Source: an uncultured bacterium | GTDB taxonomy: Bacteria > Oederibacteriota > JAAXVQ01 > JAUVAV01 | Direction of reading: 5' to 3' | Assembly (NCBI GenBank): GCA_963710755.1 | Contig: CAVQBK010000003.1 | Coordinates: 1,184,001-1,248,000, forward strand | DNA length: 64,000 nt | Part shown: positions 3,270 through 64,000 of the stretch, in pieces | Layout of the letters: each line of letters starts with the position of its first letter | Position numbering within the stretch: the stretch's first letter is position 1 | Notes under the pieces: model-generated | Database searches by the model: none | What the model saw: the letters and a program-made list of their open reading frames with translations, nothing else | Told to the model about the DNA's origin: nothing | Position numbers and translations under genes: made by a program

Positions 3270-4289
3270 ATGGCAAAGAAATATCGGGTTGGCATTATGG
3301 GGGCGACCGGTGCTGTGGGATCAGTCATGCTCAAAGTATTGGAGGAAAGGAAATTTCCCATTGCGGAGTTACGTCCTTTGGCCTCGGTACGTTCGGCCGG
3401 AAAAAAACTGATTTTTAACGGACAGGAACATGAGGTCTTGGAAATGACGGCTCAGTCATTTCAGGGCTTGGATATCGTGCTGGCCTCTGCCGGGGGTGCG
3501 GTATCCAAACAATATGCACCGGCAGTCACAGCGGCCGGGGCGGTAATGATTGACAACACCAGTGCTTTTCGTATGGATCCCCAGGTGCCCTTGGTCGTGC
3601 CGGAGGTCAATCCGGAGGACGCCTATCAGCACCAAGGGTTGATTGCCAATCCCAATTGTACCACGATCATTATGCTGACCGCCCTCAAACCCCTACATGA
3701 CGCGGCCAAAATCAAACGTATTATCTGCAGTTCCTACCAGGCTGTATCGGGCAGTGGCGTGGCGGCCATGAAGGAATTGGAACGCCAAGTCAAACAATTT
3801 GCAGCCGGTGAATCCATAACGGTGGAGACTTATCCCTATCAAATTGCCTTTAATGTCTTGCCGCAAGTGGATGTTTTCCAAGACAATGGTTATACGCGGG
3901 AAGAAATGAAAATGGTCAATGAAACCAGAAAGATGCTCCACGACGACACCATCATGGTCTCAGCTACCTGTGTGCGGGTGCCTGTGTTCACTTCCCATGC
4001 GGAAAGCCTGCAAATCGAAACGGAGAAGAAATTAACCGCTGATGAGGCTCGTGCCTTGTTGGCTCAGGCACCGGGCGTCAAGGTGGTGGATGACCCCTTG
4101 CAATTGAAATATCCCATGCCTCTGGAGACTTCCAATCAGGATGATGTTTGGGTGGGCCGTATCCGGGAGGATCTCTCCCATCCCCATGGGCTGGCCTTAT
4201 GGGTAGCTGGTGACCAGTTACGTAAAGGCGCAGCCACCAATGCCGTTCAAATCGCGGAATTATTGATTAAAAAAGGCGCTTTGGCTTAG
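3270..4289 (+). CDS. asd: Aspartate-semialdehyde dehydrogenase
   Basis: GATGAVG, IDNTSAFRM, VPEVN, ANPNCTT catalytic Cys, YQAVSG, WVAGDQLRKGAATNAVQIAE. Confidence 0.97.
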   Translation: MAKKYRVGIMGATGAVGSVMLKVLEERKFPIAELRPLASVRSAGKKLIFNGQEHEVLEMTAQSFQGLDIVLASAGGAVSKQYAPAVTAAGAVMIDNTSAFRMDPQVPLVVPEVNPEDAYQHQGLIANPNCTTIIMLTALKPLHDAAKIKRIICSSYQAVSGSGVAAMKELERQVKQFAAGESITVETYPYQIAFNVLPQVDVFQDNGYTREEMKMVNETRKMLHDDTIMVSATCVRVPVFTSHAESLQIETEKKLTADEARALLAQAPGVKVVDDPLQLKYPMPLETSNQDDVWVGRIREDLSHPHGLALWVAGDQLRKGAATNAVQIAELLIKKGALA

Positions 4290-6282: not shown

Positions 6283-7401
6283 ATGATACAAGTGGCCATG
6301 TCTTCATATCTATCATCGCCGCCATCCTCAGGGAGGGGATTGGACAGTGATATCGCCAAAACCCTGATCCGTAAGCATCTGGCCCTGAATTTAGGGCATC
6401 AAGGCGTGATGAATGCCAAATTGAATTTGGCGGTCTTGATCAATGCCTTGCTCCAGGTCTCGCGGGAAAATGGGTTTATAAAATATGATGCCTTTGATAA
6501 AACCATCCAGGTCAAAGCTTTTGACCATTCCCCGGTGATCTATCAATACAATCCTTATCGCGATCCTGCTAATCGTCGGGCTGAGGGTCAGCCGGTCTCT
6601 AAAAAGCCAGGACGCAAAACTGATTTTTTGGCTTGGGAAACATTTCCGGAAAATGAACACTATCTTATCTGGCAGGCGCCCAGCCGCATGCACTACGGCA
6701 TTTTAGTGCAGCCAGCGCCTATCGTGCCGGGTCATCTGATTATTGCCTCGCTTACCAGAAATCATGATACCCAACAGCATTTTCCCCAACAAATGCCGCT
6801 TAATTTGTTTAAGGATATGCATGTGCTTCGATCAGAATTGGCCAAAATTGGATATGTTATGGGCTACAATCCTTGGGGGGGCGGCGCCTCGGTTGATCAC
6901 TTTCATGTCCAGGCAGTGCCGGCGATGTATTTGCCGCTGGTTGGCCTATTGGATCAAAACAAAATAAGCGGCAGTTATCAAGGGCATGATCAGCAGGGTG
7001 TTTCCATTGAGGTTATTGACAATGAAGATGATGGTTCGGAAAACCGCTATCCTGCCAATGCGCTGGTGATGCGTTCCAATTTTAAAGAATTGCTTTATGA
7101 ACGCAAAAAACAACTGCTTGATTATTTAAACCGCGAAAAAATATTGTGTAATATATTGAGTTGGCAGCAAACCTCCGGAATGGCCGTGGATGTATTTCTT
7201 CCCCGGGGAGAGGAGTCGGTGATGGATCATGCTTTTAATGCCGGCTATGTGGAAATGGCCGGCATGTTGGTTATCCCTTATAAAGCTTTGTTTGACAGTA
7301 TTAATGATCCCAAGAGCGGAGAAGAGGCCTTGCGTCAGGCTTCCTATCCAAAAAAAGATTTTTCCAAATTAGTCAAAATTATTAAGATGTTTTTCCGGTG
7401 A
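6283..7401 (+). CDS. HIT-superfamily nucleotide-sugar phosphorylase-like protein (DUF4922 / GDP-hexose phosphorylase-like)
   Basis: QYNPYR, P.PI.PGHL, YNPWGGGASVDHFHVQ (HxHxQ motif) and EMAG.L motifs. Confidence 0.65.
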   Translation: MIQVAMSSYLSSPPSSGRGLDSDIAKTLIRKHLALNLGHQGVMNAKLNLAVLINALLQVSRENGFIKYDAFDKTIQVKAFDHSPVIYQYNPYRDPANRRAEGQPVSKKPGRKTDFLAWETFPENEHYLIWQAPSRMHYGILVQPAPIVPGHLIIASLTRNHDTQQHFPQQMPLNLFKDMHVLRSELAKIGYVMGYNPWGGGASVDHFHVQAVPAMYLPLVGLLDQNKISGSYQGHDQQGVSIEVIDNEDDGSENRYPANALVMRSNFKELLYERKKQLLDYLNREKILCNILSWQQTSGMAVDVFLPRGEESVMDHAFNAGYVEMAGMLVIPYKALFDSINDPKSGEEALRQASYPKKDFSKLVKIIKMFFR

Positions 7402-7809: not shown

Positions 7810-10800
7810 ATGCTAAAACCACGGTGGGATAACCTTGGCCACATGGGAAAGCTTGTATCAAGTCGCCCGACAAGACCGGCCGAGCGCCTGCAGGTCATGC
7901 TGAAGCGCAGTGTAACCCTATTGTTGTCAGTATTTATGTTTTTGCCTCATGTGACGTGGGCCTTTTCTTCTTTGCCAAGATATGGTGATCCCATTGTCAT
8001 CAACGATCGTCCCTTGGCAGTGCCATCTTATTTGGGAAAAATCAGAGCTTTGAAAAAAGGTAAAAACAAACTGGTCATTCATATTCAGGATTTCCATTGT
8101 CACGACCAAATTCAAGAAACCATTGCGCAGTTGATCAAGTACCTTCATTATTCTTATGGGGTCAACCTGGTGGCGATCGAAGGTGCCCGTGGTCCTTTGG
8201 ATATTTCAAAACTGTCTACTTTCCCATTGGAAGAAATTAAGCAGCAGGTAGGCCACTATTTTATTAGACAAGGAAAATTGTCGGGCGCGGAATTGGCGGT
8301 GGCCCTTGATCCCAAGGGCCTGCGATTGGTGGGCATAGAAGATGAGGTGCTCTATCAACAAAGTTACGCTTTGGTGCAAAACTTTTATTCGCGGGAGGTG
8401 GAGGGGGTCCTACTTGATTTGCGCCAAGCTTTCGAGGACCTCAAACCCGCCATCTACTCCCCTGAACTTCGGAAATGGGATAGCCTTAAAGTAGCCCTGC
8501 ATAACGGTAAAATCTCCTTTTATCATTATTGTGAATTGCTAATCAAAGCAGCCCGAACACAACATCTAAATCCGGCACCTTACGGCCATGTCATGACCTA
8601 TCTGGCCACCAAACAGGCCAGTTTCAGCAACACCATAGATGTGAAGGTGCTCTTTCAGCAGGTGAGGGCTTTGGACCAGGCGGGGCGGGAACTTTTCTAT
8701 CAGCAAGACAAGCAACGGACTTTTGACCAATTGCTCGATTATTTGGAAATGATTCAGAATTTACTGGGCATTTCCATTACTGATGACGAATTGGAGATGA
8801 TCCGGCACCATCGGGAAGCGTTCCGCTTAAAACGTTTTCTTGATTTTTATAAAACTTATGGCAACGAAGGCATGCTGCTGCTCGATGATCAAGTGGTGCG
8901 TTTGGACCAATGGGTGGATGACGGCTTGCACTTTTACCAGTTGGCAGATGAGCGGAGCAACCAATTTGTACGCCATACCTTGGAGGCCATGGCAAACCAG
9001 CAACAATCGGTTGCGGTTTTGATCACCGGGGGGTATCACAGCCAGCATATTGAGGAAGCGCTTAAACAAGCCGGCGTGAGTTATATCGGGGTTGATCCCC
9101 AAATGCGTCAATTTGATTTGCAGAACCCTTATACTGAACTCATCCGCGGTTATAAAACCCCTTTGGAAAAAATCCTGGCGCTCAATAATGATTTAATGGC
9201 CTTAAAACCTTTTGCAGTTCCTTTGCAGCGCGGACAATTGCCGGTGGGTGAAAATCTGCCGCAAGATAAACGTAGTGATTATGCATTGATGGACCTCATG
9301 TTGGAAACCGCGACCACGGGGGCTGTGATTAATCGTGAGAAGGCGCGCTTTGTCAAAAAGAAAGTGACGGCAGCGGTAAAGGCTGTCCTGGACAATTATC
9401 CGGCTGATAATCCAAAGGTAGGTTTGGCTCTGGACGACCTGGCGGGCGACAGCCACGTATGCCATGTGCCTCTGAAGCATTCAGCCTTTGAAGCGGTTTT
9501 TTACCATCCACAAGATGATGCTATGGTCGATAAGGTAGCCGCTACCACGGTGCCTTTGGCCGGGGGTCAAAAAGCAGCGTTTTATAAGCGTAGCTTGTGG
9601 CCAACCATTCAAAAGGCGCTGACCAAGGTCAATCGCAAAACCGTCACCACCGTAGCCTTCTCTCTTCGGCAATGGCGTACGCAAGCCAAACAAATTTTGG
9701 GCATCTGGTTTCGCCAGCTGCTGCCAACGGGGGAAAGCCGGGGGTTGATTTGGCGTACGGCCAAAAGCATGGCCATGGCAGCGGCACTGTTTATGGCCGG
9801 TGGGTTTTTAAACATGGCCCAAGCTGCCACCACGCTTATCCATTATACAGTAGCCAAGTATGACCGTTTATCCGCTGTTGCCCGGCGTTTGGGCGTTGAT
9901 GTGTCGAGTTTTCATCTGGCCAATCCTGATCTCATTCATCCCGGCGATCAGGTGTCTGCCGTGGTGGCGGATGCGGATAAAATCAGACAGGCCGGTCATC
10001 ATGCCCGGGGCGTGGTAGACGTGTTCCCCCTTTCGGACAGGGATTTTGATATACCCAGCCCCTCCCCAAAGTTTGATATGCCGCTGCCTTCCCGCGATTT
10101 TGATATACCAGATGGCAGTTTTGCCAATCCATTATCTATGGCGCACACAGCCCATGCCACTTATGTGGAGTCAACCTGGCATGGCTTTTCCCATTGGACC
10201 GCTCAAAGTGTCGACGGTCTTTGGCAATCCCTTCACAGCTTGCCGGTTGATGTTCATTGGCTGGTGGGCGGCATTGCGCTTCTGGCCGTGGCTGGCGCTG
10301 TGGCCTTGGCCAAGCCCGTCATAAGCCAACGCACCGCCAGGGCCTCTATTTCCGATTCCTTGAAAAGAGCTTATGTCCAGCGGGAACGGTTGGAAAAAGA
10401 ACTGGCGATCACCTTTGAAAACACGAAAGGCACTTATCACGAGGTGTTCAGCGGCAATTACAGCTTGCTCAGAGCCAAAACCAAGTTCCTCCTTCGGCAT
10501 GATCTCATCCTGAATCCCTTTGTCCTCCGTTATAGCTTGGACCGCTTAAAAGTATTGGCCAAAGAGGTGGAACTCAAACGCCAGGAAGGATTGGAGGTTG
10601 GTTTTAAACAACTGAAAACCATGCTTGCCCATCCTGCGCTTGTGGTGCCCACTCCGGAAACCCTGGCCGATCTGCCCGGTGCCGCCAAAACGTTGCTGCA
10701 AGCGGCGCATCAAAACTATGCCGAGCCCTTGATGGTGCAAGTGGTGACCCGGCTTTTAAACCTGCGCTGGTTGCAACCCCTGGGCCAAGGACGGTCTTAC

Positions 10801-13800
10801 CCCCAAATCGCCCAAGCCGCAGCCCAAGGGGAAAAAAGCCTGGCCGTGGTTGTCTGGTATCGCGTGATGGTGCAAGGGCTCTCGCGGTTGTTTATCCCGT
10901 TTTTTATGCCAATCATATTAATTAAAAATAATTTGGCCCGCCCCTCCCTGATCACGACTTTGTTGATTATCCTGACCGTGGCTGCCAACGTGCAGCTGCC
11001 CTTGACTCCGCCCGGCTGGATCGTGACGGGCATCATCAGCATGGCGCTGGTGAACGAGGTCCTGATCATCCATTACCTGGATCAGCGACGGCAAGCAATT
11101 AAGGCCAACAACAAGCCGGCGTATGCTTCTGAAGAAGAAAGGAAGCAGGCCGAAGAGGTTGGCCAATTGGCCGTCCGGAAAAAAATTAAATTAGCCGTCA
11201 TGCCTATTTATATGGAAATGATGAGTGATTTGAAATTGGCCATTGGCTTGGTGCCTATTGTCACCCAGCTGTCGCCTGATCCCACTTCCTGGACCATGAC
11301 CTTTGTGTTGATGACGGTTTTGCTGGGCATGATGGGGGTTTTGGTTATGACGGCCAACATTGCCATGACCAGGAGCAGGGAAAAACGGTGGTTGAAACTA
11401 AGTGAACTATTTTGGACCCTCATTGATGAATGGAAAAAGATCTGGGCAGGCATGGTTCAGGACTTTCATGATTTTCTTAAAAACAAGGCCATGCAACCGC
11501 ACACGACGTTGCTGGCCGTCGGGCTGTTCATCATGGCCAGGATGTTCGATTACAGTTCCAAGTTTTTAGCCCTCGGTTCCCTGGCTGCCATTGGTCTTTA
11601 TGCCGGGACAGGGGTCGCCATGATCTTTGTGGCCATTATTCTTATTAAAAATTACACCAAGGACTCGGACTGGTTGGAAAAGTTGGCCACCAATACCATC
11701 AAAATTGTGGCGGCCGTGGTGCTTATTGAAGTCAGTAAATTTCCAGCGGCGTTTTTCATGGCTGTTTTTTTAGGCAATGCGCTGGGCGGGCAGGTGCAGG
11801 ACGTTAGCCTGAAAATGTTTAAGAAAGTAGCCGGCATTTTGTCCTTTGCACAATTTTTCCTCAACGTGGCCGACTTTATCCTACGCAAACAAAAATTATC
11901 GGCATTGCCAATGCAGCGAGCCGACAAAACCAAGAAACGCTCTTTACTCAATCGTATATGGGACAATTTCCAGCCAGGCCAGCCCATTCGGGACATTGCC
12001 ATGTTTTTTGCTTTTGCTTCTTTGCTATTCATTACTTATCATATCAGTCCGGCCGTGCCGTTGTTGCTCAGCCTGCAACTATTCAGCTTGATCGGCCTGA
12101 TTACCAAGTGGCTGACCATGTCCAAAAATTTCAAAGTTAATCAAACCGTTAAAATCACCACTTTGGCCTCCTTGATACCTGCTTCATTGCTGATTTTTTC
12201 CATGGTATTTACAGGCGGCTTGGCTTGGATTGGCCAAACCTGGCCGGCCTTGCTGCCCGAAGCCCTGGCGACCCCCATGGTGCAGTTTGGCACCATGTTT
12301 CATTTTCTGAACGGTACGCTGGTGGATCTTTCCGTTTTTGTGGTATTTATGTACAGCCTGCTTGGTTTCTCCAGCGTGCTCAAGGATCAGGATAAGATCA
12401 GCAAAGTATCGGAAGTGGCCTATTCCAGGACCAAGACGCTGCAGCAAATTATTGATCATTATATTGAAGGTGTGGTGCTCTATATTTATCAACATCCCGG
12501 CGTGACACCGGACATGGCCAGGCTCAGGCAACTTTGCAAAACCGGTCATCTGCTTTTGGTGCCCAAAAAAGCGGCCCCCAGTTGGATGGGCGATCTGATC
12601 AAAAGCGGGATATTTTCCTTTGGCAATGAAATTTATATCCGCCGCCGGGTTTTTAACCTGGTCAGCGACCGTACCGTGGCCGGGTTGGTAATCCGTGAAG
12701 GCCTGCTGCAAGCCGGGCTGCCCATAGGGGAAGTCCGGGCCATTGTGGAACATCTGACCCACCGTTCGGCCGTGGATCTGGCCTTATTGCCAAAAAAAAT
12801 TCTGGAGAGCAAGGAAATGGAAATGGACACGGTCCTGGCTTTTGAAAGGACCGGCAAGCCATTAAGCGAGAAGAAAAGAGCCAAGCGGCAATATCATGCT
12901 CTGCAATGGCGTTACAACCTTACTTTTGAAACACCATTCCAGGACGATATCCAAACCTTTTGCGGTAACTGGGGGGACCTGAATAATAAAATTCAGATCC
13001 TTCTGCTTCATGGCATTACGCCTCATCCCTTTTTCTTGAAGTATGAACAGAACCAAATTGAGGCAGCAGCCAAGATCCTGGAGCAACAAAAAAAACCAGG
13101 CCGCCGTCTGAGCTTGGGAGATTACAAATGGGCCATGGAGCAGGTCATTGAAAGGGAAGCGGCGCACGAAGGGACATCTATTTTGGAAGTCCAGGAAAAT
13201 GCCCACCTGGATGAGGACAGTTATTTCCAAACCGCAGGTAGTGACATTAAAAGCCTGGAGCGCCGTGGGGAACAACAGACTGACAAGGCGGTGGTCAACT
13301 TGGAAGGTTGGGCTTTGATTAAACAAAGCGCCATTAATTTTTTCTACCGTCATGATGAGCGGGAACCAAAGAGACGGGTGTTGCGGCTGCCCTGGCTCAT
13401 TTTGGTCGTCATCCTCCTTGGGCCCGTGGCCATGATCAAAGAAGCAGCCGTTTCCGTGAGCCATGCGGTGGTGGCCATCAACCGCAAGCTTTTTATGCAA
13501 CGCCACAAGGAACTCAAAACGGCGGAGGTGGCGCCAGAAACTTGGGAGGATAAGAAGGGGTTATTAAGACAATACGGCCTACCCTTGGATCCCTTCTTTG
13601 ACTTATTCAGCTTGGCCAGATTAACTATTGCGCTACCCAAAATTAAACAAAAAATAGAGGAAGGAAACCGCCCCGATACCAGCCTCTATGTGCAAGTACT
13701 CCAAGAAAGCCAGCGTTCCAAGGGGCCTGGAAAAGGCCATCATTCCCAAAAGCATGCCGCCATCTTCTCGCCGGCTCTCGATGGTCAAGAATTAGGATAT

Positions 13801-16014
13801 CTGACAGAGCAAGCCGCTGCGGGCGCCATGCCCGTCAAAGAGGAATTGGGATTCTGGGGCAAGGTTCTGGAAAAGATATTAATGGTCATTATATTTGAAG
13901 AAAATAATGATGGGATCGATCAGCGACAGCTGCGCTGGCCCTGGTCCAAGCTGGGTCCGATGGTAAGAGGGGCGCTTGCTTACAGCCGGTTGTTGCTGGC
14001 CTCCTGGCTAACCGCGCCGGCCCACACAAAGGAAGTGACGGTGGACGAAACCCAGCCAGCCGTCAGGCGTCTGCTCTTGGAGGCCGGCTTGCCAGATGTG
14101 ATGACCACCAGCTTTTTAGCCAACCGTGCCGGCTTTGAAATTAAACCAGTCCACTTGGCGGGGATTAAGGTGGAAGGCCGCTTGCCGTGGTTGAAGCCAG
14201 CCTATTGGCAGGGATATTACCAAGAGGAAGGCCGTCATAGGGAGCCCACCATTTATGTTCCCAATGCTTTGCTTGATATAGTGTTAAACCGCCAAAGCAA
14301 TAGCCAAGCTGGATGGCAGGCTTGGATTGCTGGTCTGAAATACCGAGCGCTGCGATGGTATTTTAAACTGGTGCTGCAGCATCATCGCGATAACTATTAT
14401 GCCCAAAAGGGACAGGACCTGAGTGACCTGATTATTAGCCAACGGCGACAAGCCTTGACATCGGAGTACACTCTTGCACCCTTGCCTGCAAGCAGCCAGA
14501 CCACGAAAGTGAAAGAACAGTACCGATCGTGGTTCCTGGAACAAGCCGGTTGGCTTCATGCAGCTGCTGCCAAAAGTCAAACCGATCCTTTGACCGTTGA
14601 GGCTTATCGCCATCCGCAAGAGCATATGGTTTTGGGTCTGTATGATTTGGTAAGTATTGTCGAGCAGGAATTGGCGCCTTTAAAGCACTGGCTGAATGCA
14701 GGCTCGGAACCAAACACTTTAGATGTAGAAGCCTTGCTGCAACAACAAGCCAAACGTGGTGCTGACATCAGTCCGGTGACGTTGTTACACCAGATCCCTG
14801 AACTGCAACAGACCATGCTCAGTGAAGGCTTGCAGGTTATTCAAACCGCACTGCAGGAGGCGCAGACAACCGCATTGCCGCAAGCCCTGATACGGCAAGA
14901 CAGCTTGGCCTACCTGGTGCAGCATCAGGCCAGCAGATCGAATCATCTGCGCCTGGTTCAGCAGGTTACTGACTATCCGCAGCAGGTTTCCTTACTGTCC
15001 ATGCCCCAGACCGCCCGGCTGTTAATTACTATGATCGATCAATGGATGACCAAAGTCCTGGTCCAAGGGGGGGTGCCGCCACAGGTGCTGGAGCAAGTAC
15101 AGTATCTCACCCAATTGAAGATAGCCTTGCAGGAGATGACGGCGGCGAGGCCAGGGACATTGATTCCTTTGGCACCGTCTTTGGGTCATCGGGTTTGGGA
15201 TTCGGCTGCAGAAGTGGCCCAGGAGGAACAACCTGAGCTCATGAGTCTGGGCCAGGATTTGAACAACTACCAGTATGCTTTTACCAATGGCCGTGTAAAC
15301 GTCATGGAAATCGGAGAAGATGCCATGCTGGTCAGTAGGCAGGTTGTCAATATCACCAGCCTGGATAAATTGGATTCTTCCATCCAGGCCTTAAGCCTCA
15401 TGGAGTCGGGTGCAGTAATTTCTGAAATTTATCAAGGCCGGGAAAACAACGCTGAATCCCCTGAGCCGGACTCATTCTGGCTGGACCCTCTTAAGAAAAC
15501 AGGGCTGCATTTGGTATTGCTGCTCCCGGGAGCTTGGCAACAACCTTATCTGCGCTTTTGGCTAAGCCAGGATCCAGCCTTGGTGGCAGAAGTCCAATTG
15601 TCCAGCACCCCCTCGCCATTGGCCGGGTTATTGCGCGATCATCGGACACCTTTGAGGCAATTATATGAACGCTGGGCCAGGACCCGAACTGAGGACCAGC
15701 TAACCGCTTTGGTTCGTGCCATGATTCGTGTCATTGCCCACTTGGACAAGAAACAGGACATTCAGGCCAGTTTGGAGACCCTGTCGGGGATAAGTCGTCT
15801 GCCGGGTATGCATGCCGAAATGATCGGTAAATGGCTTGACAAGGAAAGTAAGCATTATCAAGTGTTCGTACCGGGGGTGCTCCTACAGCCTGGCCAAGGG
15901 GGCGCGCTGGGAGCGCTTATTGATGTACTCAATCCCCTGCCGGTCCAGCTGGAAAAACAAATAGGCGAACACTATAAACGCCGGCTCTTCCGCGACGCGG
16001 CTCAGGCTGCTTAA
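7810..16014 (+). CDS. Giant (2734 aa) signal-peptide-bearing multi-TM protein, paralog 1; conserved N-terminal domain, LysM domain, internal repeats
   Basis: 8.2 kb uninterrupted ORF with AAGGAG RBS. N-terminus homologous to the ORFs at 41037 and 63289. LysM-like YTVAKYDRLSAVARRLGV...NPDLIHPGDQV; many hydrophobic segments. Confidence 0.85.
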   Translation: MLKPRWDNLGHMGKLVSSRPTRPAERLQVMLKRSVTLLLSVFMFLPHVTWAFSSLPRYGDPIVINDRPLAVPSYLGKIRALKKGKNKLVIHIQDFHCHDQIQETIAQLIKYLHYSYGVNLVAIEGARGPLDISKLSTFPLEEIKQQVGHYFIRQGKLSGAELAVALDPKGLRLVGIEDEVLYQQSYALVQNFYSREVEGVLLDLRQAFEDLKPAIYSPELRKWDSLKVALHNGKISFYHYCELLIKAARTQHLNPAPYGHVMTYLATKQASFSNTIDVKVLFQQVRALDQAGRELFYQQDKQRTFDQLLDYLEMIQNLLGISITDDELEMIRHHREAFRLKRFLDFYKTYGNEGMLLLDDQVVRLDQWVDDGLHFYQLADERSNQFVRHTLEAMANQQQSVAVLITGGYHSQHIEEALKQAGVSYIGVDPQMRQFDLQNPYTELIRGYKTPLEKILALNNDLMALKPFAVPLQRGQLPVGENLPQDKRSDYALMDLMLETATTGAVINREKARFVKKKVTAAVKAVLDNYPADNPKVGLALDDLAGDSHVCHVPLKHSAFEAVFYHPQDDAMVDKVAATTVPLAGGQKAAFYKRSLWPTIQKALTKVNRKTVTTVAFSLRQWRTQAKQILGIWFRQLLPTGESRGLIWRTAKSMAMAAALFMAGGFLNMAQAATTLIHYTVAKYDRLSAVARRLGVDVSSFHLANPDLIHPGDQVSAVVADADKIRQAGHHARGVVDVFPLSDRDFDIPSPSPKFDMPLPSRDFDIPDGSFANPLSMAHTAHATYVESTWHGFSHWTAQSVDGLWQSLHSLPVDVHWLVGGIALLAVAGAVALAKPVISQRTARASISDSLKRAYVQRERLEKELAITFENTKGTYHEVFSGNYSLLRAKTKFLLRHDLILNPFVLRYSLDRLKVLAKEVELKRQEGLEVGFKQLKTMLAHPALVVPTPETLADLPGAAKTLLQAAHQNYAEPLMVQVVTRLLNLRWLQPLGQGRSYPQIAQAAAQGEKSLAVVVWYRVMVQGLSRLFIPFFMPIILIKNNLARPSLITTLLIILTVAANVQLPLTPPGWIVTGIISMALVNEVLIIHYLDQRRQAIKANNKPAYASEEERKQAEEVGQLAVRKKIKLAVMPIYMEMMSDLKLAIGLVPIVTQLSPDPTSWTMTFVLMTVLLGMMGVLVMTANIAMTRSREKRWLKLSELFWTLIDEWKKIWAGMVQDFHDFLKNKAMQPHTTLLAVGLFIMARMFDYSSKFLALGSLAAIGLYAGTGVAMIFVAIILIKNYTKDSDWLEKLATNTIKIVAAVVLIEVSKFPAAFFMAVFLGNALGGQVQDVSLKMFKKVAGILSFAQFFLNVADFILRKQKLSALPMQRADKTKKRSLLNRIWDNFQPGQPIRDIAMFFAFASLLFITYHISPAVPLLLSLQLFSLIGLITKWLTMSKNFKVNQTVKITTLASLIPASLLIFSMVFTGGLAWIGQTWPALLPEALATPMVQFGTMFHFLNGTLVDLSVFVVFMYSLLGFSSVLKDQDKISKVSEVAYSRTKTLQQIIDHYIEGVVLYIYQHPGVTPDMARLRQLCKTGHLLLVPKKAAPSWMGDLIKSGIFSFGNEIYIRRRVFNLVSDRTVAGLVIREGLLQAGLPIGEVRAIVEHLTHRSAVDLALLPKKILESKEMEMDTVLAFERTGKPLSEKKRAKRQYHALQWRYNLTFETPFQDDIQTFCGNWGDLNNKIQILLLHGITPHPFFLKYEQNQIEAAAKILEQQKKPGRRLSLGDYKWAMEQVIEREAAHEGTSILEVQENAHLDEDSYFQTAGSDIKSLERRGEQQTDKAVVNLEGWALIKQSAINFFYRHDEREPKRRVLRLPWLILVVILLGPVAMIKEAAVSVSHAVVAINRKLFMQRHKELKTAEVAPETWEDKKGLLRQYGLPLDPFFDLFSLARLTIALPKIKQKIEEGNRPDTSLYVQVLQESQRSKGPGKGHHSQKHAAIFSPALDGQELGYLTEQAAAGAMPVKEELGFWGKVLEKILMVIIFEENNDGIDQRQLRWPWSKLGPMVRGALAYSRLLLASWLTAPAHTKEVTVDETQPAVRRLLLEAGLPDVMTTSFLANRAGFEIKPVHLAGIKVEGRLPWLKPAYWQGYYQEEGRHREPTIYVPNALLDIVLNRQSNSQAGWQAWIAGLKYRALRWYFKLVLQHHRDNYYAQKGQDLSDLIISQRRQALTSEYTLAPLPASSQTTKVKEQYRSWFLEQAGWLHAAAAKSQTDPLTVEAYRHPQEHMVLGLYDLVSIVEQELAPLKHWLNAGSEPNTLDVEALLQQQAKRGADISPVTLLHQIPELQQTMLSEGLQVIQTALQEAQTTALPQALIRQDSLAYLVQHQASRSNHLRLVQQVTDYPQQVSLLSMPQTARLLITMIDQWMTKVLVQGGVPPQVLEQVQYLTQLKIALQEMTAARPGTLIPLAPSLGHRVWDSAAEVAQEEQPELMSLGQDLNNYQYAFTNGRVNVMEIGEDAMLVSRQVVNITSLDKLDSSIQALSLMESGAVISEIYQGRENNAESPEPDSFWLDPLKKTGLHLVLLLPGAWQQPYLRFWLSQDPALVAEVQLSSTPSPLAGLLRDHRTPLRQLYERWARTRTEDQLTALVRAMIRVIAHLDKKQDIQASLETLSGISRLPGMHAEMIGKWLDKESKHYQVFVPGVLLQPGQGGALGALIDVLNPLPVQLEKQIGEHYKRRLFRDAAQAA

Positions 16015-41036: not shown

Positions 41037-44000
41037 ATGCCCTGGTGGAACAAGTCCAAACGAAAAATGCTAACCAAAATCATTGCCTTAATGGTTAGTC
41101 TTACCTTTATTCAACCTTTGGTAACCTTTGCTTTTAATCCCCTTACTTATCCCCAACCGGGTCTTCCATTTTCCACCATCAACTATATGGGCAAAACCGT
41201 CAAGCTGCCCGTTAAAAAAGCCGCGGTAGTGGGCACATACCAGGGCAGCCCCAAGACCGTGATTTGCATTCAGGATTTACATTGCAATTATGAAGTCCAG
41301 AAGAACATTGCTTCCACCCTGGATTATCTGGTCAAACGATTGGGCTTACGCCTTATTGGCGAAGAAGGGGCCTTTGGTGATTTGCCCACAGGCGTAATCA
41401 AAGATTTTCCCAACCGGAAAATCAAAGAGGAAGTGGCTGATCATTTTGTACGCCAGGGCAAATTAACAGGTGCTGAATATTTTACAGTTACCACTTCCGC
41501 GCCAGTCCAACTGATAGGTATTGAAGACAAGTCCCTTTATAACGATAGTTTAGCGCGGGTGCACCATTTCTTAAATGCCGAGAGCCAGGGATTTATTTAC
41601 GATATCCGCGATCAGCTCGATATACTTAAAAATAAGATCTACAACCACGGCTTAAAGAAGCTGGACCAAAAGGCCATGGCCTACCGTATGGGGGATCTGG
41701 GGCTTTTAAATTATGCCGCTTATCTAAGTCAGTTGGCCCGTTCGCTTAAAGTGGATCTTAAGCCTTACGCACTCTTTAACCGTTTTGTCATGCTCCATCA
41801 AGATTTCTTTGCACCTGAAATGGAAGCAGACGCTCTCTACCGCCAGGTGGACCAAGTGGAAGCTGCGTTACGCCAAGTCTCATATGATAATGAAGCTCAG
41901 AAGACCTTAGATAATCTTTACCACCGGCTTTATATTATGGAACGGTTGCTCAACATTTCGGTCTCGCAGGACGAATTGGCTGATTTTCGTCAGCACCGCA
42001 CTCAGTTTAAAACCAACGTCTATGATGCGTTTTTACAGGCCCAAGGCACCTTAGGCCTGGACAGCTCTTTTGACACGCTCGACCGCTACCTGCAGGAGGC
42101 CGGTGAATTTTATAATCTGGCCGATCAGCGCAGCCAGGCTTTTGTTAACAATCTAAGCCGGGCAATGGATAAAGGTAAGCAGTCACTGGCCGTGATGATC
42201 AATGGCGGCTTTCATTCGGAAAAAGTGCTGGCCTACCTGGAGCAGAAAAATATATCCTACCTTTCAGTAAGGCCGCAGCTAACCAAGCTGGATATCATCA
42301 ATCCTTATTTCGAACTGCTGCAGGGCAAGAAAACACCATTAGAAAAATTGTTGGCCAAAAACCAGAATATTCTGGCAGTTAAATCAGCATTACTGGATCC
42401 CGTGTTCCGACATTTGACGGAGTTAATGGTCAAGGTTATGGCCAAAACTGAAGGCGTGGAATCCGGTGCTTATAGCGAGCTTTATAAAAGTGTATCGTTG
42501 AGTCACCTGCAGCCAACGGCTCATTGGAGTCGGGTTACCACTTCACTTGATGATCTGGTCGGTGTTCTGGTATTTAAAGCCAACAAGAAACTGACTAAGC
42601 TAAGCAAACAGCTGAACGCCATTGAGGTTACCACCATCGGGAATAGAATCATTGCCTTTTTTAGCAATGCCAATCAGACCCAGCAAGCTGCAACTTTGGT
42701 GGATAAAGCAATCGCCCCGACCTGGCAGTCCACTCTCCTTGGGATAGTGGAGACAGTGCTTGGGGCCAAGGCGCCAGGATGGAAACATGCCGGGTTTATC
42801 AATTTTAACCTCCTTACTTCGTCTCGATGGGCTTTGGGATTTTTGGCCACCACTACAGCTATTATCATGTTTGCAACCCATCAGGAATTGTCGGTGGCTA
42901 ACCTAGCCCTCTTCAGCTTGGGGTTAACCACCATGATGCCGGAGGGAGTGATAAGCCTTATTCAAGCTGGCTTTGAACAAGCCTATGCCCGCAAGCTGTC
43001 TCGATCGCGATTATATTATCCGCACCATCAAGTTACATTAAAACCGTCGGGTGACATCGAAGAAGAAAATGATCCTACTCTGCGGCAATTGATTCAGCAA
43101 AAAACGACCTTTTTACTTGAAAGTCAACGGGGTGAAGAGATCAAAAGAATTACAGGCGATGCGCTTAAAATAGAAGGGAAATGGTATCTACGTCTCGGTG
43201 ATCGCTGGGTGGGCGTTGAAAATGAAGACTTTGCGGACAGCATGATCAGATACGGGGACTTGTTCACCAGCCATTTTCTTTTAGGCAACAAACAATTGCA
43301 AATGCTTTTAGGGCTGGATAGCAATTCTTTACCAACGCTTGCGCCTATCCCGGAAGAATTCGAAACGGCTACGGAGATTCAGGGCCTGTTTCTTAACGAA
43401 TATACCGGCAACCAGCGCCTGCAGGCGATCAATTTCATTCAATCGACCAATATCATTAATCTGGCGAAAAAAGGTGAGTTGAATCGTACCACCCTTATGC
43501 ATTATCTGGACGCTTTTATAGTCGTGTCCCACAAGCGGGTGGCGGCTTATGATGAATTCATTGAAGCCAGGCAGAATCTCTTACTGCTGCTTAATCTCAA
43601 TGAAGTTCTACCGGGGAAGCACCTTACGTCAACACAGGAAACGATGATCAAAGAAAACCTGGTTTTCGGTGAAAAGAGAAAATTGGGTTTTCCGCAATTG
43701 CTGCTGGATATGATTGTGCGTAATCCCAGTATAAAAAAACTGATCAAAACCAAGGCCGATGGCCGCGTATCTTTTTTGGCTCAAGATGGACGAATTAGGG
43801 AAATTGATCTGGCCAATGAGACTTATTGGGGAACGCCGTTGGATCAGGATGAAATGATGGCCCAAATAAAAAAGCAAGCTGATCAAGCCGGTTACCACTG
43901 GCAAAAATATATGACCGATAAATTTCCTTATGCCCCGCTGGTTCCCACCGGGGGTATGGCCACGCGCATTGCCAAGGTGCATTTCAATCAGAATAAACTT

Positions 44001-47000
44001 TTTGGTCTCATGCTACGCATTAAAATGGGCCAAGAACAGAAGGCTTTGGAATATTTTAAGACAAAGGGATTTGACCAGTTTGAATTGGAGTATTTCGGAG
44101 ATTATGCATATATCGCCATCACACCATTGGTGCTGTCAATGAATCCGCAGGCTACTATTGTCATGGGCGGGTTGGCAACCATTGTACCTTTGGAAAGTTG
44201 GTTTGGCGGGTATGCCGCCCGGACAAGTTTACTTGAAACGCAGGATACGTTGCACCCCCTGACTACTGAGGGCGAGATAATGACCGATACCCTGATTAAT
44301 GGCGGACATGGCCGAATTATCACCGGTTTTTTTAGTAATAAAGATAAAATTGCCGAGCTCCTGGATGAGGGTTACGTACTCCGTTACAATCAAGCCGATG
44401 ACAAGGGCGACCGCACTCTGGGTCATTTGATGAGCCGGTTGTTGAAATTAGGACAGGCTGCCATGGCCGTCATCAGCACTCCTCAAGCCGTAAGTATCAA
44501 GTTTAATATCAAGGAAATTCAAGACGCTTTAAAACAAGGTGAAAAAATAACCTATAAAGGTCACGCCGTCAAAGCGGTTTCAGATGAAGCGCTGGAGTTG
44601 GTTAATGGTGACAAGGTCGCTCTTCAACCCATAAAGGCAGGACTTCAACAGGCTTTAGATAGAACCAATGCTTTAAAAGCAGAAGCGGAGCAACTGACAG
44701 GCCCGGCACAACGGGACAAACGCATTGATGCTATGAAATACTATAAAGAACATATTTATGACAAATTGTCGGAGTATCTTTTGAAAAATAGTAAGGATAA
44801 AGCCGTCATATTGATTGAAGCCAAGTTCAATCAGGGCGGAGAAATTGTTGATGTTGACAACCAAAGTAACTTTTACGAGAAAAGTGAATATATTCAAGAA
44901 GACGGAGACAATATTTACCGGGACAGCCACGGCCAAAAACATGCTTTCCCTTTGCCAGTAGTGCTGGCTGTGGATTTTAAAGATTTTAACAGTAACAATC
45001 TCTCCCTAGATCTGCTGGCCTTCATGGCAGTCATGGATCATAAAGCCAAGGATGCATATTTTGATTTTCTCAGAGCTTCTGCACAAGTGTTGAGTGAAAG
45101 CGAGCTTCTTGCAAGACGCCAGCAGGCTGAGAAAGAAGTAGCTGCGATTGCGAAAAATATGGATACCGATGTCTGGGAGGCCAGATTACAAGTATTTGAG
45201 AGGCTCATGTTTGCTTTGGCCGCACCGCCGATTGAAATCAAAGAAGGTAATGTCAATTTAAATATGATGGCCCAGAATGTGAGCCGTCTGGCAGCCCAAA
45301 TAGGGTTGAGTGATATCACCATGGAAAATATCGATATTCGCAATGTTGAACAGGTCCTGAATGCGGCTGCTAGCCGTGAAACCTTTACCGCACAGGCTGC
45401 CTATAAAAATGGCCAATTTAAAAACCTTGAAGGCCAGACGCTTAGTTTTGCCCGTTCTTCCCGGTTAGATGGTGTTCCAGTTAAGACCCTGGCTCAAATC
45501 AGAGGCCGCAACGATCAAGCCAGTCAAGTTAAGGGCAGCACTGATTTTGATCCATTTGCGCATCAGATTAATGAGAGCCTCATGGCCATGGGCGAAAGCC
45601 CGTTTCTGGCTGAAACCGAGATCGGCGAGGGCCGTGTGGTTAATATGGAATTGAATCAACGGCAGGCCGTCAACCTGTGGGAATGGATGCATAAGGAAGG
45701 CAAGGATATCGTTACCCCTAATGTCAAACGCGTGCTGGAACGGATGCTGGGATTGATTGCCCGCCATGGCGGTTCCCTGCCTGAAGGCGCATTTCCTAAA
45801 TCAGTTAAAAATTATAGCCGGATGCTTCATTTCATGCACTATTTATTGCCCTTGGTCATAGAAAAAGATCCTGTCAAGAAGCGCCTCGCCGAACAAAGCC
45901 TTTCCAAAGGATTCCAGGAAGCCGAAAAAGAGGGTGGGTTGATGACTACCCAGACATTGATCAGCCGTTTTCAAGCCGGCCAACAGCAACTTGACGCAAC
46001 CATTCAAATAGGCGGTCTCATTGGTGGTTTCTTGCTATTGGCTGGAGTAGTGACTGTGGCCAGTGGCCTGTTCATCTCCGGTTGGGTCGTTTTATTGCCT
46101 GTGGGGTTGGCGGTGTTGGGAAGTCTTTTAGCAAAACCTTATCTGGTGGCTGTATGGCAAACCGGCGAATTGGCCAGATGGCGGCTTGATCTTCAGTATC
46201 GAATTAAACGCTTGCTCCATTATTTAAGCCATCAACCACTGGCGGCAAAATTGACTTTTTGGCTGGCCATCGGTATTTCACACTTGTGGCAACCCCTTCG
46301 AGACAAAATAATCATTCATATACCAATGATCAACACACTCTTATTGATTGATCCGGTTTATCAAATGCTGGCGGCTGATCACTCCGTCATGACTATGCAA
46401 CAAGCTAAGGATGAGATTAGTCACCAATATCGAATGGAAATGTTTAATGATAAGAACTTAAATGCCCAAGAACAGACAAAACGAATTGCACGATTCAATA
46501 CTGCTGTTGCTCAAGCCTCCGAAATATTTGAAAATCAAGTCATGAATAACCCCCAGATTCGGGTGCTGGCTGACCTGGAAGATGACTTTAGCCCGGAAGT
46601 GAAAAAAGTGCTGGAACATTTTTTTGCCAAGCATCGCTTATTGGTTACTTATCCCCAGGAATTGACGGAAACTAACGTAGCGATGCAGCTTGGTGTAAGT
46701 GAACATGCCGCCCAGCTGGCCTTGGAATTGCTTAACGGCATACCGGCGCAAAAGACCAAATGGAAAAATATCACCAAGAAACTCAGCAAAGGTAATCAAA
46801 TGGTCTATTACCAGTTGAAGGAAAAACCGGTTGATCTGAAAAATGTTCATGTGGTGCTCATGCTGGGAGGCGGCATGGAATCCCTTTTGCCCGTAAATAC
46901 CAGGCAATGGAAGAGCAATGTTCCCACCTTGTTACAAAAACAACTAGGGCTTTTAGCTGAGTTGAAAATACCGCTTGCGCATACCCATATCATCTGTAAT

Positions 47001-50000
47001 GACTCTCAGGAAAAGGATATTCGCACCAACCTACCTGAAGATTTCCCGCGGGGAAACCTGCTGTCCCAGCCGTTGATGGGCGGATCTGCGGCTACCTATG
47101 GGTTAATGCTGGAAAAAATTCGACTAGAGGCCGGTGAGGATGGGGTGGTTATGTTTATGCCGGCAAAGAATTTGATTGGAGATTATAACCAATTCAAAAA
47201 AACCTTGGACGATGCACTGAAGTCAGCTGTCGATCAGGACAGAGTAACGGCTATTGGCTTACCCAGCCAAGAGGTTATAGACAATGTCGGCTATATGCAG
47301 GAAGGGGTGAAGCTAAAAGGAAGCGGTGGCTTGTATCAAGTAAACGCCTTGTTTGAAAAACCGGATACAACAGCTGCCAGGCAACTTGTCCGTCAGGGGG
47401 CCTTGGTAAACACTGGGATATATCTTATGCGGGTTGAACATGGACTACGTCTCTATAGGGAGGCTTCGCCCATTCTCTATGATTGGATGAAAAGAGTGAT
47501 TAGAAAAGGTTTTGAAGAAGGTAGCATGAGGGCACAAATAGGTTCTTATTTTGCGCTCTTATCGGATAAAGCCCGGGTGGAGGCAGCACGGTTATTTGCC
47601 ACGATTATACCTGAAAATCGGGCCGGCTTTGCCATGCTTGCGGTGGATCCTAAAATTTCATGGACTCCTGAACCCATCATGAGTGAAGCCAAGGATTTTA
47701 ACGGCAATATTAAAATCGGGTTGGGAGAATTCAATCAGCAGGATTCACATAATAACGTTGTATTTGCCGATGAAAATATTAACCTTACACTACATGAAGT
47801 CAATGGTTACTATGTTATGGCACCTGCCAACAGAGGTATTTTATTGGTGGTTCCCGTAGCAGCGCGCCAGAAAATTGGCGAAATATTTAGCCAGTTAGGC
47901 CAAAATCCTGACCTTGAACCTTATCTGAAGGGGGGGGCTGTTCCAGATGAAGTCATAGCACGTCATAAAGGCGAAATAAAATATGATAACTCCAATACCA
48001 TTAGGGGGTTAGGAACAGTAATTAGCTCGACCAATGTGCATCTCGATTCGGGCAAAGGAATGGTGGTCACGATCTCGGCGGAAAATCTTAGCATTACCCG
48101 GAAGGGTGATGACATCACCATTACTCACCTTGCTCCTCATACGGTTGCTGCCGGCGGTACTATGAGTTGGCTGGAAGCGCCGCTTATGAAGTTGTTTGGC
48201 ATTCAATCATCAACCTTTGTCAAATACCTTGCACCTGCCCTGGAATTGTTCCCCCTGGCCATTTCCTATATTCTATACGGTTTGGTGACAGGCGACTGGA
48301 CCATGGCTGCTGCTCCGCTAAGTGCCATGTTTGCGGCTTTTGGCCTGTATTCCCTACCCAGGGTGGGGATGTTCACACGTTTGCACGATTTTAGGGACAT
48401 GAGCGAGATGCCTGCTGATGTGTTTGAAGCCCGCAAAGCGCAGGCTGAAAAGTTATCGACCATCAATACTATGGCTCTGGCGCTGCTTTTCACAGCTAGC
48501 CAATTATTGGCCGTAAGTGCCACCACAGCCACAGCCGTGCTGCTGGCCATGTGGCTGGTATCGCATTATGTGGCTAATAACCTTAACTCAACTACCGCGT
48601 CGTCCGCGAAGAAAAGTAAGTCCTTGGGAGAATTCTTAGGGCTGGTCGAGGACCCCAATGTGGAACAGCTTCGGGACAAGCCCCTCGGCGAAATTATTTA
48701 CCAGGCTGTTTATGGAGTGAACCAGGCATTGGGGAATCTGGTGCTGGGAGAAAAATTTAATTGGGCTAAAAATATTATGGTCGCGCGCGGTGCGGGGTTT
48801 GCAGTGACTGATAAAATCATTGATAAACAGGCTCGTCGCCAGGCGGGGCAACCCTTGAAAGCAGATCAAAAGATGGTGGAGTTGACCGTACCGGCCTGGT
48901 TTTACGACCTGCAAATGAAGGGCCAGCCTCTGAATCTATTGCAGAAAATGGAAATTCGTCTGCGCTTCAAAGCGGCGATGAATCATTATCGCCGTACTAT
49001 CCTTTCGGAACAACGAAGTGTTAGCAACGAAACAGCAGAGATTTATGGCCGACAGCCGCTGTGGACTTTAGCCATGAACCTTAAAAACACGATCCAGACC
49101 TATGCCCGTGCCCATGGCTTGAGTTCGGAAAAAGAAGTCTATGGCAGCCTGGGCACAGGCAAGACCATGGCCATGGTGGGTACCCAATTGGCCCTGGTGC
49201 TTGATCATCTTATGCGTCTGCAAGGCAGCCAAGGGGTATGGCAAGGTGCGAAACTGGCCGATAAGGTGGAAGCTGTGTTGGGTGCAGGATTTGCCAATCT
49301 TGATCCTGCTTATGCGGCTGAAGCCATCCTGGCCATGGATGATCATGCCATTGCAGCCATTAACGATGAAGCGGTTCAAGGCTTGCTGGCCAGTACAAAA
49401 GCCATGATTGCCGAGGCCGGTGACAACAGCTTGCTGCGTGAGGCGGTGGTGCAGCATTTGAAAGCCCTCTTTGTTCATGAGGCCCAGCTGTCTACAGTGA
49501 CCTTGAAATTAGCTTCTGTTGATGAAGGGCAGTTAGCACAAAATCCGGACACAGCCCGGATCATGTTGGCCCATAACTCGCAGGCGAGAGAAATCCTGAG
49601 CAGTATGGTAGCGCAGATGCAGGAACAAGCGCCTACGGATACACAAGAGGTGCTCCAATTCCTGAAGACCATTCTTGCCAAAGAATCGCTGAATGCAGCG
49701 GAGACTTATCAATTGAAGGACCTGTTGGGCCAGATTAGTCTGGATGGGGAAAACCAGGTGCTCCTGAACATGGGTCAGGACGCCCAAGAGTATCATGTGA
49801 GTACCACCATGACCGGATTAGAGACCCAGCAACAAGACGGCTTGACCTTGTTTGTGCCGCAATTTGCCAATGTGCTGGCCAAACAGGAAGCCTTGACCAC
49901 AGAAGGGACCAAGGCGTCGGATCAGGCGGTGATGGTGATTCCCAGTGCCTTAACCTTACCCCGCTATCTTAAGGTTTCCGATCAAGTCAAGGGGGCGTTT

Positions 50001-50837: not shown

Positions 50838-51022
50838 ATTGAGAGCACAGAAGGGGAGTTGACGTCATTTTAATTTAAATAATTCATTTTGAAACTCGCC
50901 TTTTAACCCGGTGTCTGTTAAAATAACGCCCATTAAAATCACATTTATCACCGTCCTCTTGAGTTCGAATTTTCCCGAACATGATTTTCTACGACTGTGT
51001 TAAATCATCCATTGGAGGTCTC

Positions 51023-63124: not shown

Positions 63125-63288
63125 AGCGCTGGATTTAATTTCTAATTAAAGAAAAAATTCGGCCAATATATTTGACGGCCTATTTTTTTGGTGATATTTT
63201 TTATTATGAAAAATAGCTTGGGAAATCATTAGGACATCATTAAGTCAAAAACACATTCTGCGGTCCAGAGTTGTGGAGGGGAATAAAT

Positions 63289-64000
63289 ATGACAAAAGAT
63301 GTAACAACACCCAAAAATCCCATGGAAAATCAGGATGATTTACTTTCCATGCAGGCGTGGCACCATCCAAAACGCAACCTGTTAACCAAGATAATCACCT
63401 TAATGATCACCGTGACCTTCGTGTTTCCCCTCGTCACCTGGGCTTTTGATAAAACCAATTACCAACCTCAAGATTATATTCCCCTTAAATACAATGCCAA
63501 AGACCTGATTGTACCCGATCAATACGCGAAAATTCATGATTCCCACCAGGCCGGTCAACAAGTGGTGGTGCTGGTACAAAATCTGCATTGTAACTATGAC
63601 GTGCAGATGAACATTGCCCATATTATTGATTATTTATCAGGCCACTATCGCTTGAAATTGGTGGGCGTAGAAGGCGCCAGCACAGCCCTTAATACCACCA
63701 AGCTGGGGACTTTCCCAGTGAAAGAAGTCAAGGAAGATGTGGGCAAGAGTTTGGTGCGCCAGGGACAAATGACAGGCGCTGAATATTATGCTGCCACGGG
63801 TGCCCATAAAATTTTGCTGGAGGGCATCGAAGATCAAGCGCTGTATGAACACAACCTGGACACAGTGCATGAGTTTTTAAATGCCGAGAGCCAGGGCTAT
63901 TGTTATGATCTGCGTGAATTGCTCGATGGTCTCAAGTCCAACATTTACAATCCCGCTTTGCTTCGTTTTGACGAACAACAAGCTTCCTACCGTGAAGGCC
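63289..64000 (+). CDS. Paralog 3 of the giant-protein family (N-terminal ~237 aa, runs off window; not in ORF track)
   Basis: GGAGG RBS. Manual translation MTKDV...WHHPKRNLLTKIITLMITVTFVFPLVTWAF...VQNLHCNYDVQMNIA...VGVEGA...VRQGQMTGAEY...GIEDQALY...FLNAESQG has no stop before 64000. Confidence 0.9.
   Translation, partial: MTKDVTTPKNPMENQDDLLSMQAWHHPKRNLLTKIITLMITVTFVFPLVTWAFDKTNYQPQDYIPLKYNAKDLIVPDQYAKIHDSHQAGQQVVVLVQNLHCNYDVQMNIAHIIDYLSGHYRLKLVGVEGASTALNTTKLGTFPVKEVKEDVGKSLVRQGQMTGAEYYAATGAHKILLEGIEDQALYEHNLDTVHEFLNAESQGYCYDLRELLDGLKSNIYNPALLRFDEQQASYREG

Follow-up and report, generated by a model that had tools for sequence, protein, structure and literature searches.

A stretch of 64,000 nucleotides from an uncultured bacterium assigned to the Oederibacteriota (assembly GCA_963710755.1, contig CAVQBK010000003.1, positions 1,184,001 to 1,248,000; hereafter, the window) was analysed with regard to the N-terminal domain of its large open reading frames (ORFs). 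Two of these were complete, namely A (2,734 amino acids, aa) and B (3,141 aa), while a third copy, C, was cut by the window end (Table 1). All three open with a predicted signal peptide, followed by the shared domain of ~400 aa. The start codon of A had three candidates (7810, 7840 or 7897). A and B shared 35.5% identity over 442 aa (E = 4e−78), and no further significant block common to both was found by sequence comparison besides this N-terminal region. The whole of ORF A had no Pfam match, and the Pfam and NCBIfam searches with the window copies gave nothing convincing for the N-terminal domain, the matches to UvrD_C (E = 0.014), peptidase M19 (E = 0.16) and plasmid UvrD (E = 4–9) being rejected as short chance matches. 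An earlier note on this DNA had proposed that the shared head carries an H-E-R-H pattern of the Tiki/TraB/EreA/ChaN superfamily and that it might be a metal-dependent (auto)processing protease, or a cofactor-binding module, that releases the cargo domains.

The H-E-R-H order was present as proposed, with the full set in A and B, and with H106 and E134 of C lying before the window end. The Glu was found within a GEEGA segment in B (E113) and a GVEGA segment in C (E134), while the last His of B closed a GGFH396 motif. Conservation was counted over 330 aligned rows, the working set of 329 proteins being a small, query-biased part of the family. Using the numbering of A, H96 was found in 324/324 rows, D94 in 322/325, E124 in 327/328, R382 in 328/329 and H410 in 328/329, the lone exception for E, R and H being one misaligned N-truncated fragment (P0070). 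Since these five residues were near-invariant across the aligned rows, whose median core identity was 35%, the motif is not due to chance. Moreover, the H-to-E spacing was 28 residues in 311 rows (the next commonest value appearing in 3) and the R-to-H spacing was also 28 in 286 rows (next commonest, 8), while the E-to-R distance in the family was mostly 240–360 aa. Position 177 was occupied by E in 311 and by D in 17 of 329 rows (E/D in 328/329), and G175 was invariant (329/329). Thus, a likely catalytic D94, the conserved G-x-[ED]177 and a conserved tail straddling the end of the interval first noted (8071..9200) were added to the earlier description. Copy C had Asn104 in place of the conserved Asp, a replacement seen in 2/325 rows, the other being P0326, the strongest carrier of the RSE-x-R repeat described below.

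Two details of the earlier description were modified by the alignment. The D.RS motif held for the near-invariant R, while the preceding residue (position 380) was D in 161/205 rows and the following one was S in 169/329 or D in 138/329. Furthermore, the Cys after the first His, which had been called invariant, was conserved in 266/324 rows, in 50/83 among representatives with less than 50% core identity, and in 58/58 of the rows nearest to B. The family alignment showed no other conserved Cys, and this absence together with the variability of Cys97 ruled out its role as a disulfide partner or an invariant ligand.

The domain was modelled with AlphaFold using 70 alignment rows (residues 50–480 of A and 37–500 of B), with a predicted local distance difference test (pLDDT) of 91.4 and a predicted template modelling score of 0.89 for model A, and a pLDDT of 89.0 for model B. 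The core of model A was a parallel beta-sheet flanked by helices, superposable on superfamily members, and the strand and helix order described in the earlier note agreed with both models. In the fold search, only 5 of 48,161 chains reached Z ≥ 8 against model A, all from the Tiki/EreA-ChaN superfamily: HopBA1 (Z = 10.6, root-mean-square deviation (rmsd) 3.6, 164 residues aligned), ChaN (Z = 9.5, rmsd 5.3, 186 aligned), BcR136 (Z = 9.1, rmsd 4.7, 169 aligned), EreC (Z = 9.1, rmsd 4.7, 179 aligned) and BcR135 (Z = 8.6, rmsd 4.8, 165 aligned). The fold comparison suggested earlier thus returned the superfamily in its four best chains, which were identical for model B, where five of the seven chains at Z ≥ 8 belonged to the superfamily and two were unrelated. 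PMT (Z = 6.6) and RRSP (Z = 6.5) ranked lower, among unrelated alpha/beta folds, and no solved TraB or Tiki structure turned up in the fold-search lists. The top five rows of Foldseek were EreC and BcR135, with weak E-values (0.01–0.03). In addition, a Tetrahymena respiratory complex IV subunit (8BQS chain DQ / 8B6H chain DQ) gave Z-scores of 7.4–8.4 and may be another member of the fold.

At the profile level, PF04187 (ChaN) matched the R-to-GGxH half in 3/5 and 6/19 distant relatives, over part of the profile only (E = 1.9e−6 for P0078, 4e−5 for P0213 and 7e−4 for P0082), and its curated cut-off was passed by 1/5 (P0078) and 0/19 of them. The window copies had no PF04187 match in Pfam, and the TraB and Ere profiles were absent among the Pfam matches listed. 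In the case of TraB, the helical insert that splits the core would lower profile scores; the lengths aligned with Ere structures (165–196) spanned mainly the core. A PDB sequence search with the single domain or with a 41-row profile gave no match at E ≤ 10. The top covarying pairs included H91-T406 (fifth of 68,265), F386-I414, I176-L404, L378-Y409 and A122-T390, and in the complex model described below the D/H, E and GGxH segments all contacted one 13-residue stretch. The spatial clustering of the H/E/R/H residues predicted in the earlier note was judged without coordinates, from covariation and this modelled interface, the Arg being placed by covariation only. Because of the fold search, the ChaN matches in distant relatives, the residue spacing and the covariation, membership of the Tiki/EreA-ChaN superfamily is almost certain, and on these models the domain is a new family of it with a large helical insert.

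The known members of the superfamily were compared with the domain (published papers are cited here and below from the text available for each). RRSP, the Ras/Rap1-specific endopeptidase and MARTX effector (5W6L), likewise has an acid-x-His, a Glu 28 residues later, an Arg and a His 28–29 residues after it, with E3900-x-H3902/E3930 at 28 and R4001/H4030 at 29 (PMC6254334), and its alignment with model A (rmsd 5.2, 166 aligned over RRSP 3865–4058) included all the catalytic residues. However, the window domain has Asp instead of Glu two residues before the His, is ~190 residues longer between E and R, starts ~20 residues past the signal segment without the membrane-targeting N lobe of RRSP and PMT, and heads its protein behind a signal peptide, whereas RRSP is a released effector. 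EreC and BcR135/BcR136 (6XCQ, 2RAD, 2QGM; Z = 8.6–9.1) share the spacing of 28 for both pairs (H50/E78 and R261/H289 in EreC; PMC7979712) and, beyond the core, an additional helical lobe, but identity is ~10%, there is no Ere Pfam match, the acid is at H-2 in the window domain and not at H-3, and the window-type family is fused to 2,000–7,000 aa of cargo. ChaN (PF04187, 2G5G) and HopBA1 (5T09) gave the best structural scores and PF04187 matched the C-terminal half in distant relatives, although both consist of one small domain, with no hydrolase activity demonstrated for either, and the window copies miss that profile. Finally, the Tiki/TraB-PrgY metalloproteases have the superfamily and the extracytoplasmic location in common with the domain, but no TraB Pfam match was seen for the window copies.

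Judging from the modelled fold and the conserved residues, the domain is very probably an active hydrolase. It could instead serve in export, folding or anchoring without cleaving anything, its conserved residues binding the tail or some partner, as PMT has the fold without the catalytic set (PMC6254334), hydrolase activity has not been demonstrated for ChaN and HopBA1 (PMC7979712), and the domain always stands behind a signal segment; nevertheless, the near-invariance of the five residues at a median core identity of 35%, with an enzyme-like spacing, makes this improbable. Regarding the metal, RRSP (PMC6254334) and EreC (PMC7979712) are described as metal-independent and Tiki as metal-dependent. 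As RRSP and EreC have matching catalytic sets, the earlier claim of metal dependence was left unsupported, and such dependence is doubtful for the Tiki-like domain, though some way from negligible. E177 could be an extra metal ligand. Its G-x-E context presumably resembles the acid motif of TraB/Tiki.

Similarity among relatives dropped away beyond a tail found ~50 residues past the last His, with the consensus hydrophobic-hydrophobic-Ala-hydrophobic-x-[S/T/P]-x-[F/L]. In model B, this tail was extended, ordered and non-helical (pLDDT ~82). Moreover, the domain and the tail of B were folded as two chains (model number + 36 = protein number), and the complex scored 0.69 against 0.01 for the best control, a mark that is roughly applicable here (own alignment) and that was reached by 116 of 157 solved complexes and by 2 of 215 mismatched pairs. 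The runs agreed in at least 88% of contacts, with a partner pLDDT of at least 74. Because both chains come from one protein, such a pass was expected, and therefore only the docking location is informative. In particular, residues 444–456 contacted residues 82–87, 112–116, 361–362, 365 and 392–396. These belong to the D-x-H-C loop, the E113-G-A segment, the conserved positions F361-Y362/A365 and the GGFH396 motif; A450 contacted E113, and L449 contacted F361/A365. A tail profile trained on the window's clade was then evaluated in 56 outside representatives (70 minus 14 that belong to that clade by close tail match and search origin), and the best match lay 49–53 residues past the His in 17 of them (P-value of 1e−5, for an offset window chosen post hoc). 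A universal cleavage motif searched de novo in the tails was weak (information of 6.3–6.9 vs. 5.5–5.8 when shuffled).

The docking also bears on the possibility of a ChaN-like haem or cofactor-binding domain. ChaN was second in the fold ranking and PF04187 matched the R-to-GGxH half of some relatives; however, those matches were partial, the window copies missed the profile, the tail filled the pocket in the complex model, and the neighbouring genes of the window carried no haem-uptake annotation. This alternative is thus highly improbable, and nothing was found in favour of the cofactor-binding role put forward in the earlier note.

At E ≤ 0.001, the domain matched 7,402 clusters (50% identity) among the 1.84 billion representatives searched, and the best 150 of these matches were listed. 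Among the named matches listed, FCPU426 and Firestonebacteria were the closest, together with Omnitrophota, Elusimicrobiota and Auribacterota, and one match was labelled Desulfobulbaceae, while the search of a phage collection returned no match to the domain. The large relatives were covered up to 7,768 aa (seen from 2,000 to 7,768 aa), with one targeted search spanning 3,241–5,000 aa. In all 329 proteins the domain began in the first 200 residues, a second copy was found in none of them (0/329), and a hydrophobic segment preceded the DxH motif in 286 of 294 relatives, according to the simple hydropathy scan with which the hydrophobic segments of A and its relatives were counted. The cargoes of the relatives were very diverse, including kinases, methyltransferases, phosphomutases, PPDK, glycosyltransferases and SecA parts. 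An intein/HINT-like splicing domain was also observed in the cargo of P0216 and P0217, besides their Tiki-like head.

The catalytic site was kept in each of the paralogues A, B and P0033, as a role in cis would require. The domain might, on the other hand, be a hydrolase acting in trans on an outside substrate (prey, host, envelope protein or ester), whose tail would then be a reversible autoinhibitory plug. Other proteins are the substrates of RRSP and Tiki, and an ester is that of EreC (PMC6254334, PMC7979712, PMC12329661), P0211 is possibly a stand-alone enzyme, the nearest ESM Atlas clusters are Omnitrophota proteins of 501–559 aa that may be stand-alone or fragments, and tail docking does not separate a plug from a substrate. 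Against this, the site was retained in essentially every paralogue despite unrelated cargo, without any sign of the decay that redundancy would permit, and its position was fixed at the N-terminus. An activity in trans is therefore rather unlikely.

An unbiased scan of 271 long relatives revealed a recurring motif above any of 271 shuffles in 11 of them. These motifs were RSE-x-R (19 copies in P0326 and 16 in P0091), GARL[AS] (9 copies in P0312), [AS]SS[AS]G (9 in P0310) and GASLG (5 in P0288), with unrelated flanks between copies. At least three copies of RSExR were present in 6 of 329 proteins and in none of 20 shuffles. The first copy usually appeared 55–220 residues past the catalytic His. 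Considering 10 of the 12 scanned carriers (P0324 and P0325, in which Pfam recognised no domain, were excluded), only 1 of 92 motif sites fell inside Pfam domains, compared to 6.3 expected (P = 0.012), while 12 of 44 domain edges were within 60 residues of a site, compared to 6.1 expected (P = 0.016). Furthermore, the motif classes tracked the clades of the domain tree (FastTree, 105 domains), residues 95–98, beside the first His, differed between classes, and 12 of 13 tested members of the motif-bearing clades lacked a significant tail match. It should be noted that the agreement of classes and clades is not co-evolution, as kin share the domain sequence and the motif alike. A DGG linker motif, considered as a candidate, was rejected because it occurred less often than in the shuffles (8 vs. 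21). The few membrane segments of the carriers (median 1 vs. 5 in the window's clade) were likewise discarded as support for multi-site cleavage, because motif-free relatives outside that clade are low too (median 0), so that the difference is a lineage effect.

The repeated motifs by themselves could be scars of module insertion at the DNA level, or sites for another protease, unrelated to the domain. Their position at module borders would be expected from either origin, only a few clades have them, and C39 or S8 peptidases are present in other giant proteins of Omnitrophota (10.1101/2023.11.21.568195). The distance of the first copy from the His, the missing tails, as if the motif had replaced them, and the class-specific residues beside the first His speak against it, although all three points were raised post hoc and descent confounds them. 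This origin of the motifs is a serious possibility, falling somewhat short of an even chance.

Overall, the domain is fairly probably a processing protease acting in cis, as judged from computed evidence, that is, the fold, the near-invariant D-x-H/E/R/H set, the place right behind a signal-like segment, the presence once per protein and the diversity of cargoes. According to this model, the protein would be exported and its signal removed, after which the hydrophobic-Ala tail would bind across the active site. A water molecule would be activated by the His/Glu set and the intermediate stabilised by the Arg, following the mechanism proposed for EreC, and the cut would fall at or beside the tail Ala (L449-A450-V451 in B; M463-A464-L465 in A), so that the head would be released from the cargo. 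More speculatively, in some lineages a short repeat between domains might be recognised and the protein cut into modules. The autoprocessing suggested in the earlier note thus received predictive support from the tail model, the docking and the repeats of relatives, while the release of individual cargo domains was unsupported for A and B, as they have no repeats and their clade showed no clear internal enrichment of the tail or C-terminal profiles; for these proteins, the models point to a single cut after the head only.

Several observations weigh against the domain being a self-processing protease. The fold Z-scores of 8–11 are moderate and the Foldseek E-values are only 0.01–0.03. The catalytic set of EreC, equal to that of the domain, serves an esterase, and P0211 (532 aa; longest contig 14,994 bases), with a full catalytic set, stops 42 residues past the His and has neither tail nor cargo, which, if it is complete, points to activity in trans. 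The tail had a pLDDT below 50 in model A, R368 and E166 were not among the listed tail contacts of B, and the docking location suits an uncleaved autoinhibitory plug equally well. The tail match, besides its post hoc offset window, was individually significant in only 8 of the 56 outside representatives, and the tail and C-terminal profiles were not clearly enriched internally in the window's clade (53 vs. 38, 33 vs. 35; 93 vs. 86). Moreover, 260 of the 271 long relatives had no repeat above the shuffle limit, A and B showed no recurring motif above shuffle level, and descent explains the co-occurrence of motif and domain equally well. Extending the cis-acting reading to the family, a maturation protease of secreted multi-enzyme polyproteins in Omnitrophota, Elusimicrobiota, FCPU426/Firestonebacteria and Auribacterota, combining self-release with, in some lineages, cuts at a lineage-specific five-residue motif, is a tentative proposal.

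Table 1. Features of the window discussed in the text (positions are those of the window).
Feature	Position	Strand	Basis or remark
Large ORF A, 2,734 aa	7810..16014	+	Signal peptide, Tiki-like domain, ~12 hydrophobic segments, unannotated cargo, basic and Ala-Ala C-terminus
Predicted Sec signal peptide of A, ending T-W-A51	7810..7962	+	Sequence
Tiki/EreA-ChaN-fold domain of A, residues ~72-446	8023..9147	+	AlphaFold model, fold search
Q-D94-x-H96-C97 of A, after first core strand	8086..8100	+	D and H predicted catalytic; C variable
E124-G125 of A (AIEGA), end of second core strand	8179..8184	+	Predicted catalytic Glu, 28 residues after H96
G175-x-E177 of A	8332..8340	+	Conserved acid; may be an additional catalytic or metal-binding residue
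All-helical insert of A, residues ~195-355, between catalytic-core halves	8392..8874	+	Model secondary structure
R382 of A, on long helix after F375-Y376	8953..8955	+	Conservation
G-G-Y-H410 of A, predicted catalytic His	9028..9039	+	Conservation, spacing (28 residues after R382)
Tail L462-M-A464-L-K-P-F-A of A	9193..9216	+	Candidate self-cleavage site; counterpart of the B docking segment
Basic patch then Ala-Ala at A C-terminus	15970..16011	+	Sequence
Large ORF B, 3,141 aa	41028..50453	+	Head as in A, cargo different
Tiki-like domain of B	41136..42329	+	D83 (41274), H85 (41280), E113 (41364), E166 (41523), R368 (42129), H396 (42213)
Tail I448-L-A450-V-K-S-A-L of B	42369..42392	+	Modelled across active site, A450 touching E113
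Nucleotidyltransferase-like cargo domain of B	46854..47510	+	PF00483 E = 4e-6; TIGR01479 partial match below cut-off
G-G-x-M-S-W-L of B, start of membrane module recurring in relatives	48153..48173	+	Sequence
Third copy C	63271..64000, cut by window end	+	N104-x-H106-C107 (63577-63591), E134, E187

Regarding the cargo, the nucleotidyltransferase-like domain of B scored far below the curated cut-off and its glycine-rich motif was degenerate by eye, so it may be inactive, while residues ~681–725 of A (~9850–9980) resembled LysM-type repeats by eye, with no Pfam match. The membrane module starting with G-G-x-M-P-W-L (P0148, P0124, P0143) was observed at 18 sites in 15 proteins of the window's clade, often followed by a His and a RAPP motif, and RAPP/RGPP appeared 72 times compared to 15.8 in shuffles. 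The last 600–800 aa of A (~13800–16011) matched seven relatives and those of B (~48140–50450) nine, with 21–33% identity, the C-terminal modules being conserved in relatives, unannotated and not common to A and B. Like A, B ended with a basic patch and Ala-Ala (50412–50450). Among 271 long relatives, the C-terminal ends were AA in 108, SL in 38, SA in 30 and SV in 18, with A or S as the penultimate residue in 219, while the background frequency of AA was 1.1%. We take these Ala-Ala-type C-termini to resemble a small-residue C-terminal degradation or export tag.

The remainder of the window was ordinary chromosome, with cell-division, wall, ribosomal protein and sugar metabolism genes. Upstream of A there were an unannotated 191-aa gene (1122–1697, − strand) and a DUF4922 gene (6283–7401, + strand), and no promoter- or terminator-like site was found there. 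A genome scan with one protein gave a single locus (L001) in another genome, where the gene order was as in the window up to the A orthologue (85% identical), both upstream genes being kept. The signal peptidase I, NfeD and FloA genes found after B (50981–54477) are probably linked to it incidentally. Neither A nor B had the adjacent immunity gene and the variable C-terminal toxin tip of classical polymorphic toxin loci, since A is followed by the ribosomal proteins L13/S9, B by signal peptidase I, and their last 600–800 aa are common to relatives.

In the available text of West-Roberts 2023 (10.1101/2023.11.21.568195), giant-protein N-termini are mostly without identifiable domains, the C39 and S8 peptidases excepted; autocatalytic cleavage is proposed there, with C39/S8 suggested to cut giant proteins, the missing information on cleavage points is said to have blocked a domain-wise analysis, and whether the giants stay intact or are cut is a stated open question. 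The terms Tiki, TraB, EreA and esterase do not occur in that text, whose structure files could contain the fold, nor do Tiki, TraB, EreA, 'cleav' and 'motif' in that available from the 2026 Omnitrophota survey (10.64898/2026.06.07.730766), and the domain is unnamed in the text available from PMC10066038, PMC12419801, PMC11573180, PMC12057145, PMC12329661 and 10.64898/2026.06.04.730025. The literature search, with most subscription papers and bioRxiv supplements outside its coverage, found no paper tying the Tiki fold to these large proteins and no Tiki-fold enzyme as the autoprocessing domain of large precursors. Such domains as the Omnitrophota C39/S8 peptidases, the MARTX CPD and HINT likewise combine a conserved protease with a long and variable precursor of several enzymes, but their folds are unrelated to that of the window domain.

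With these results, a predicted enzyme can be placed at the head of one large class of such proteins (2,000–7,768 aa), its predicted catalytic residues can be named, and a candidate cut site lies within an expressible construct of ~480 residues. If the cis-acting reading is true, self-processing would be added to the roles of the Tiki fold, and it would be shown where huge proteins are processed. Furthermore, if it held for the whole family, the cutting would resemble that of a viral polyprotein, and cleavage maps would be readable from sequence.

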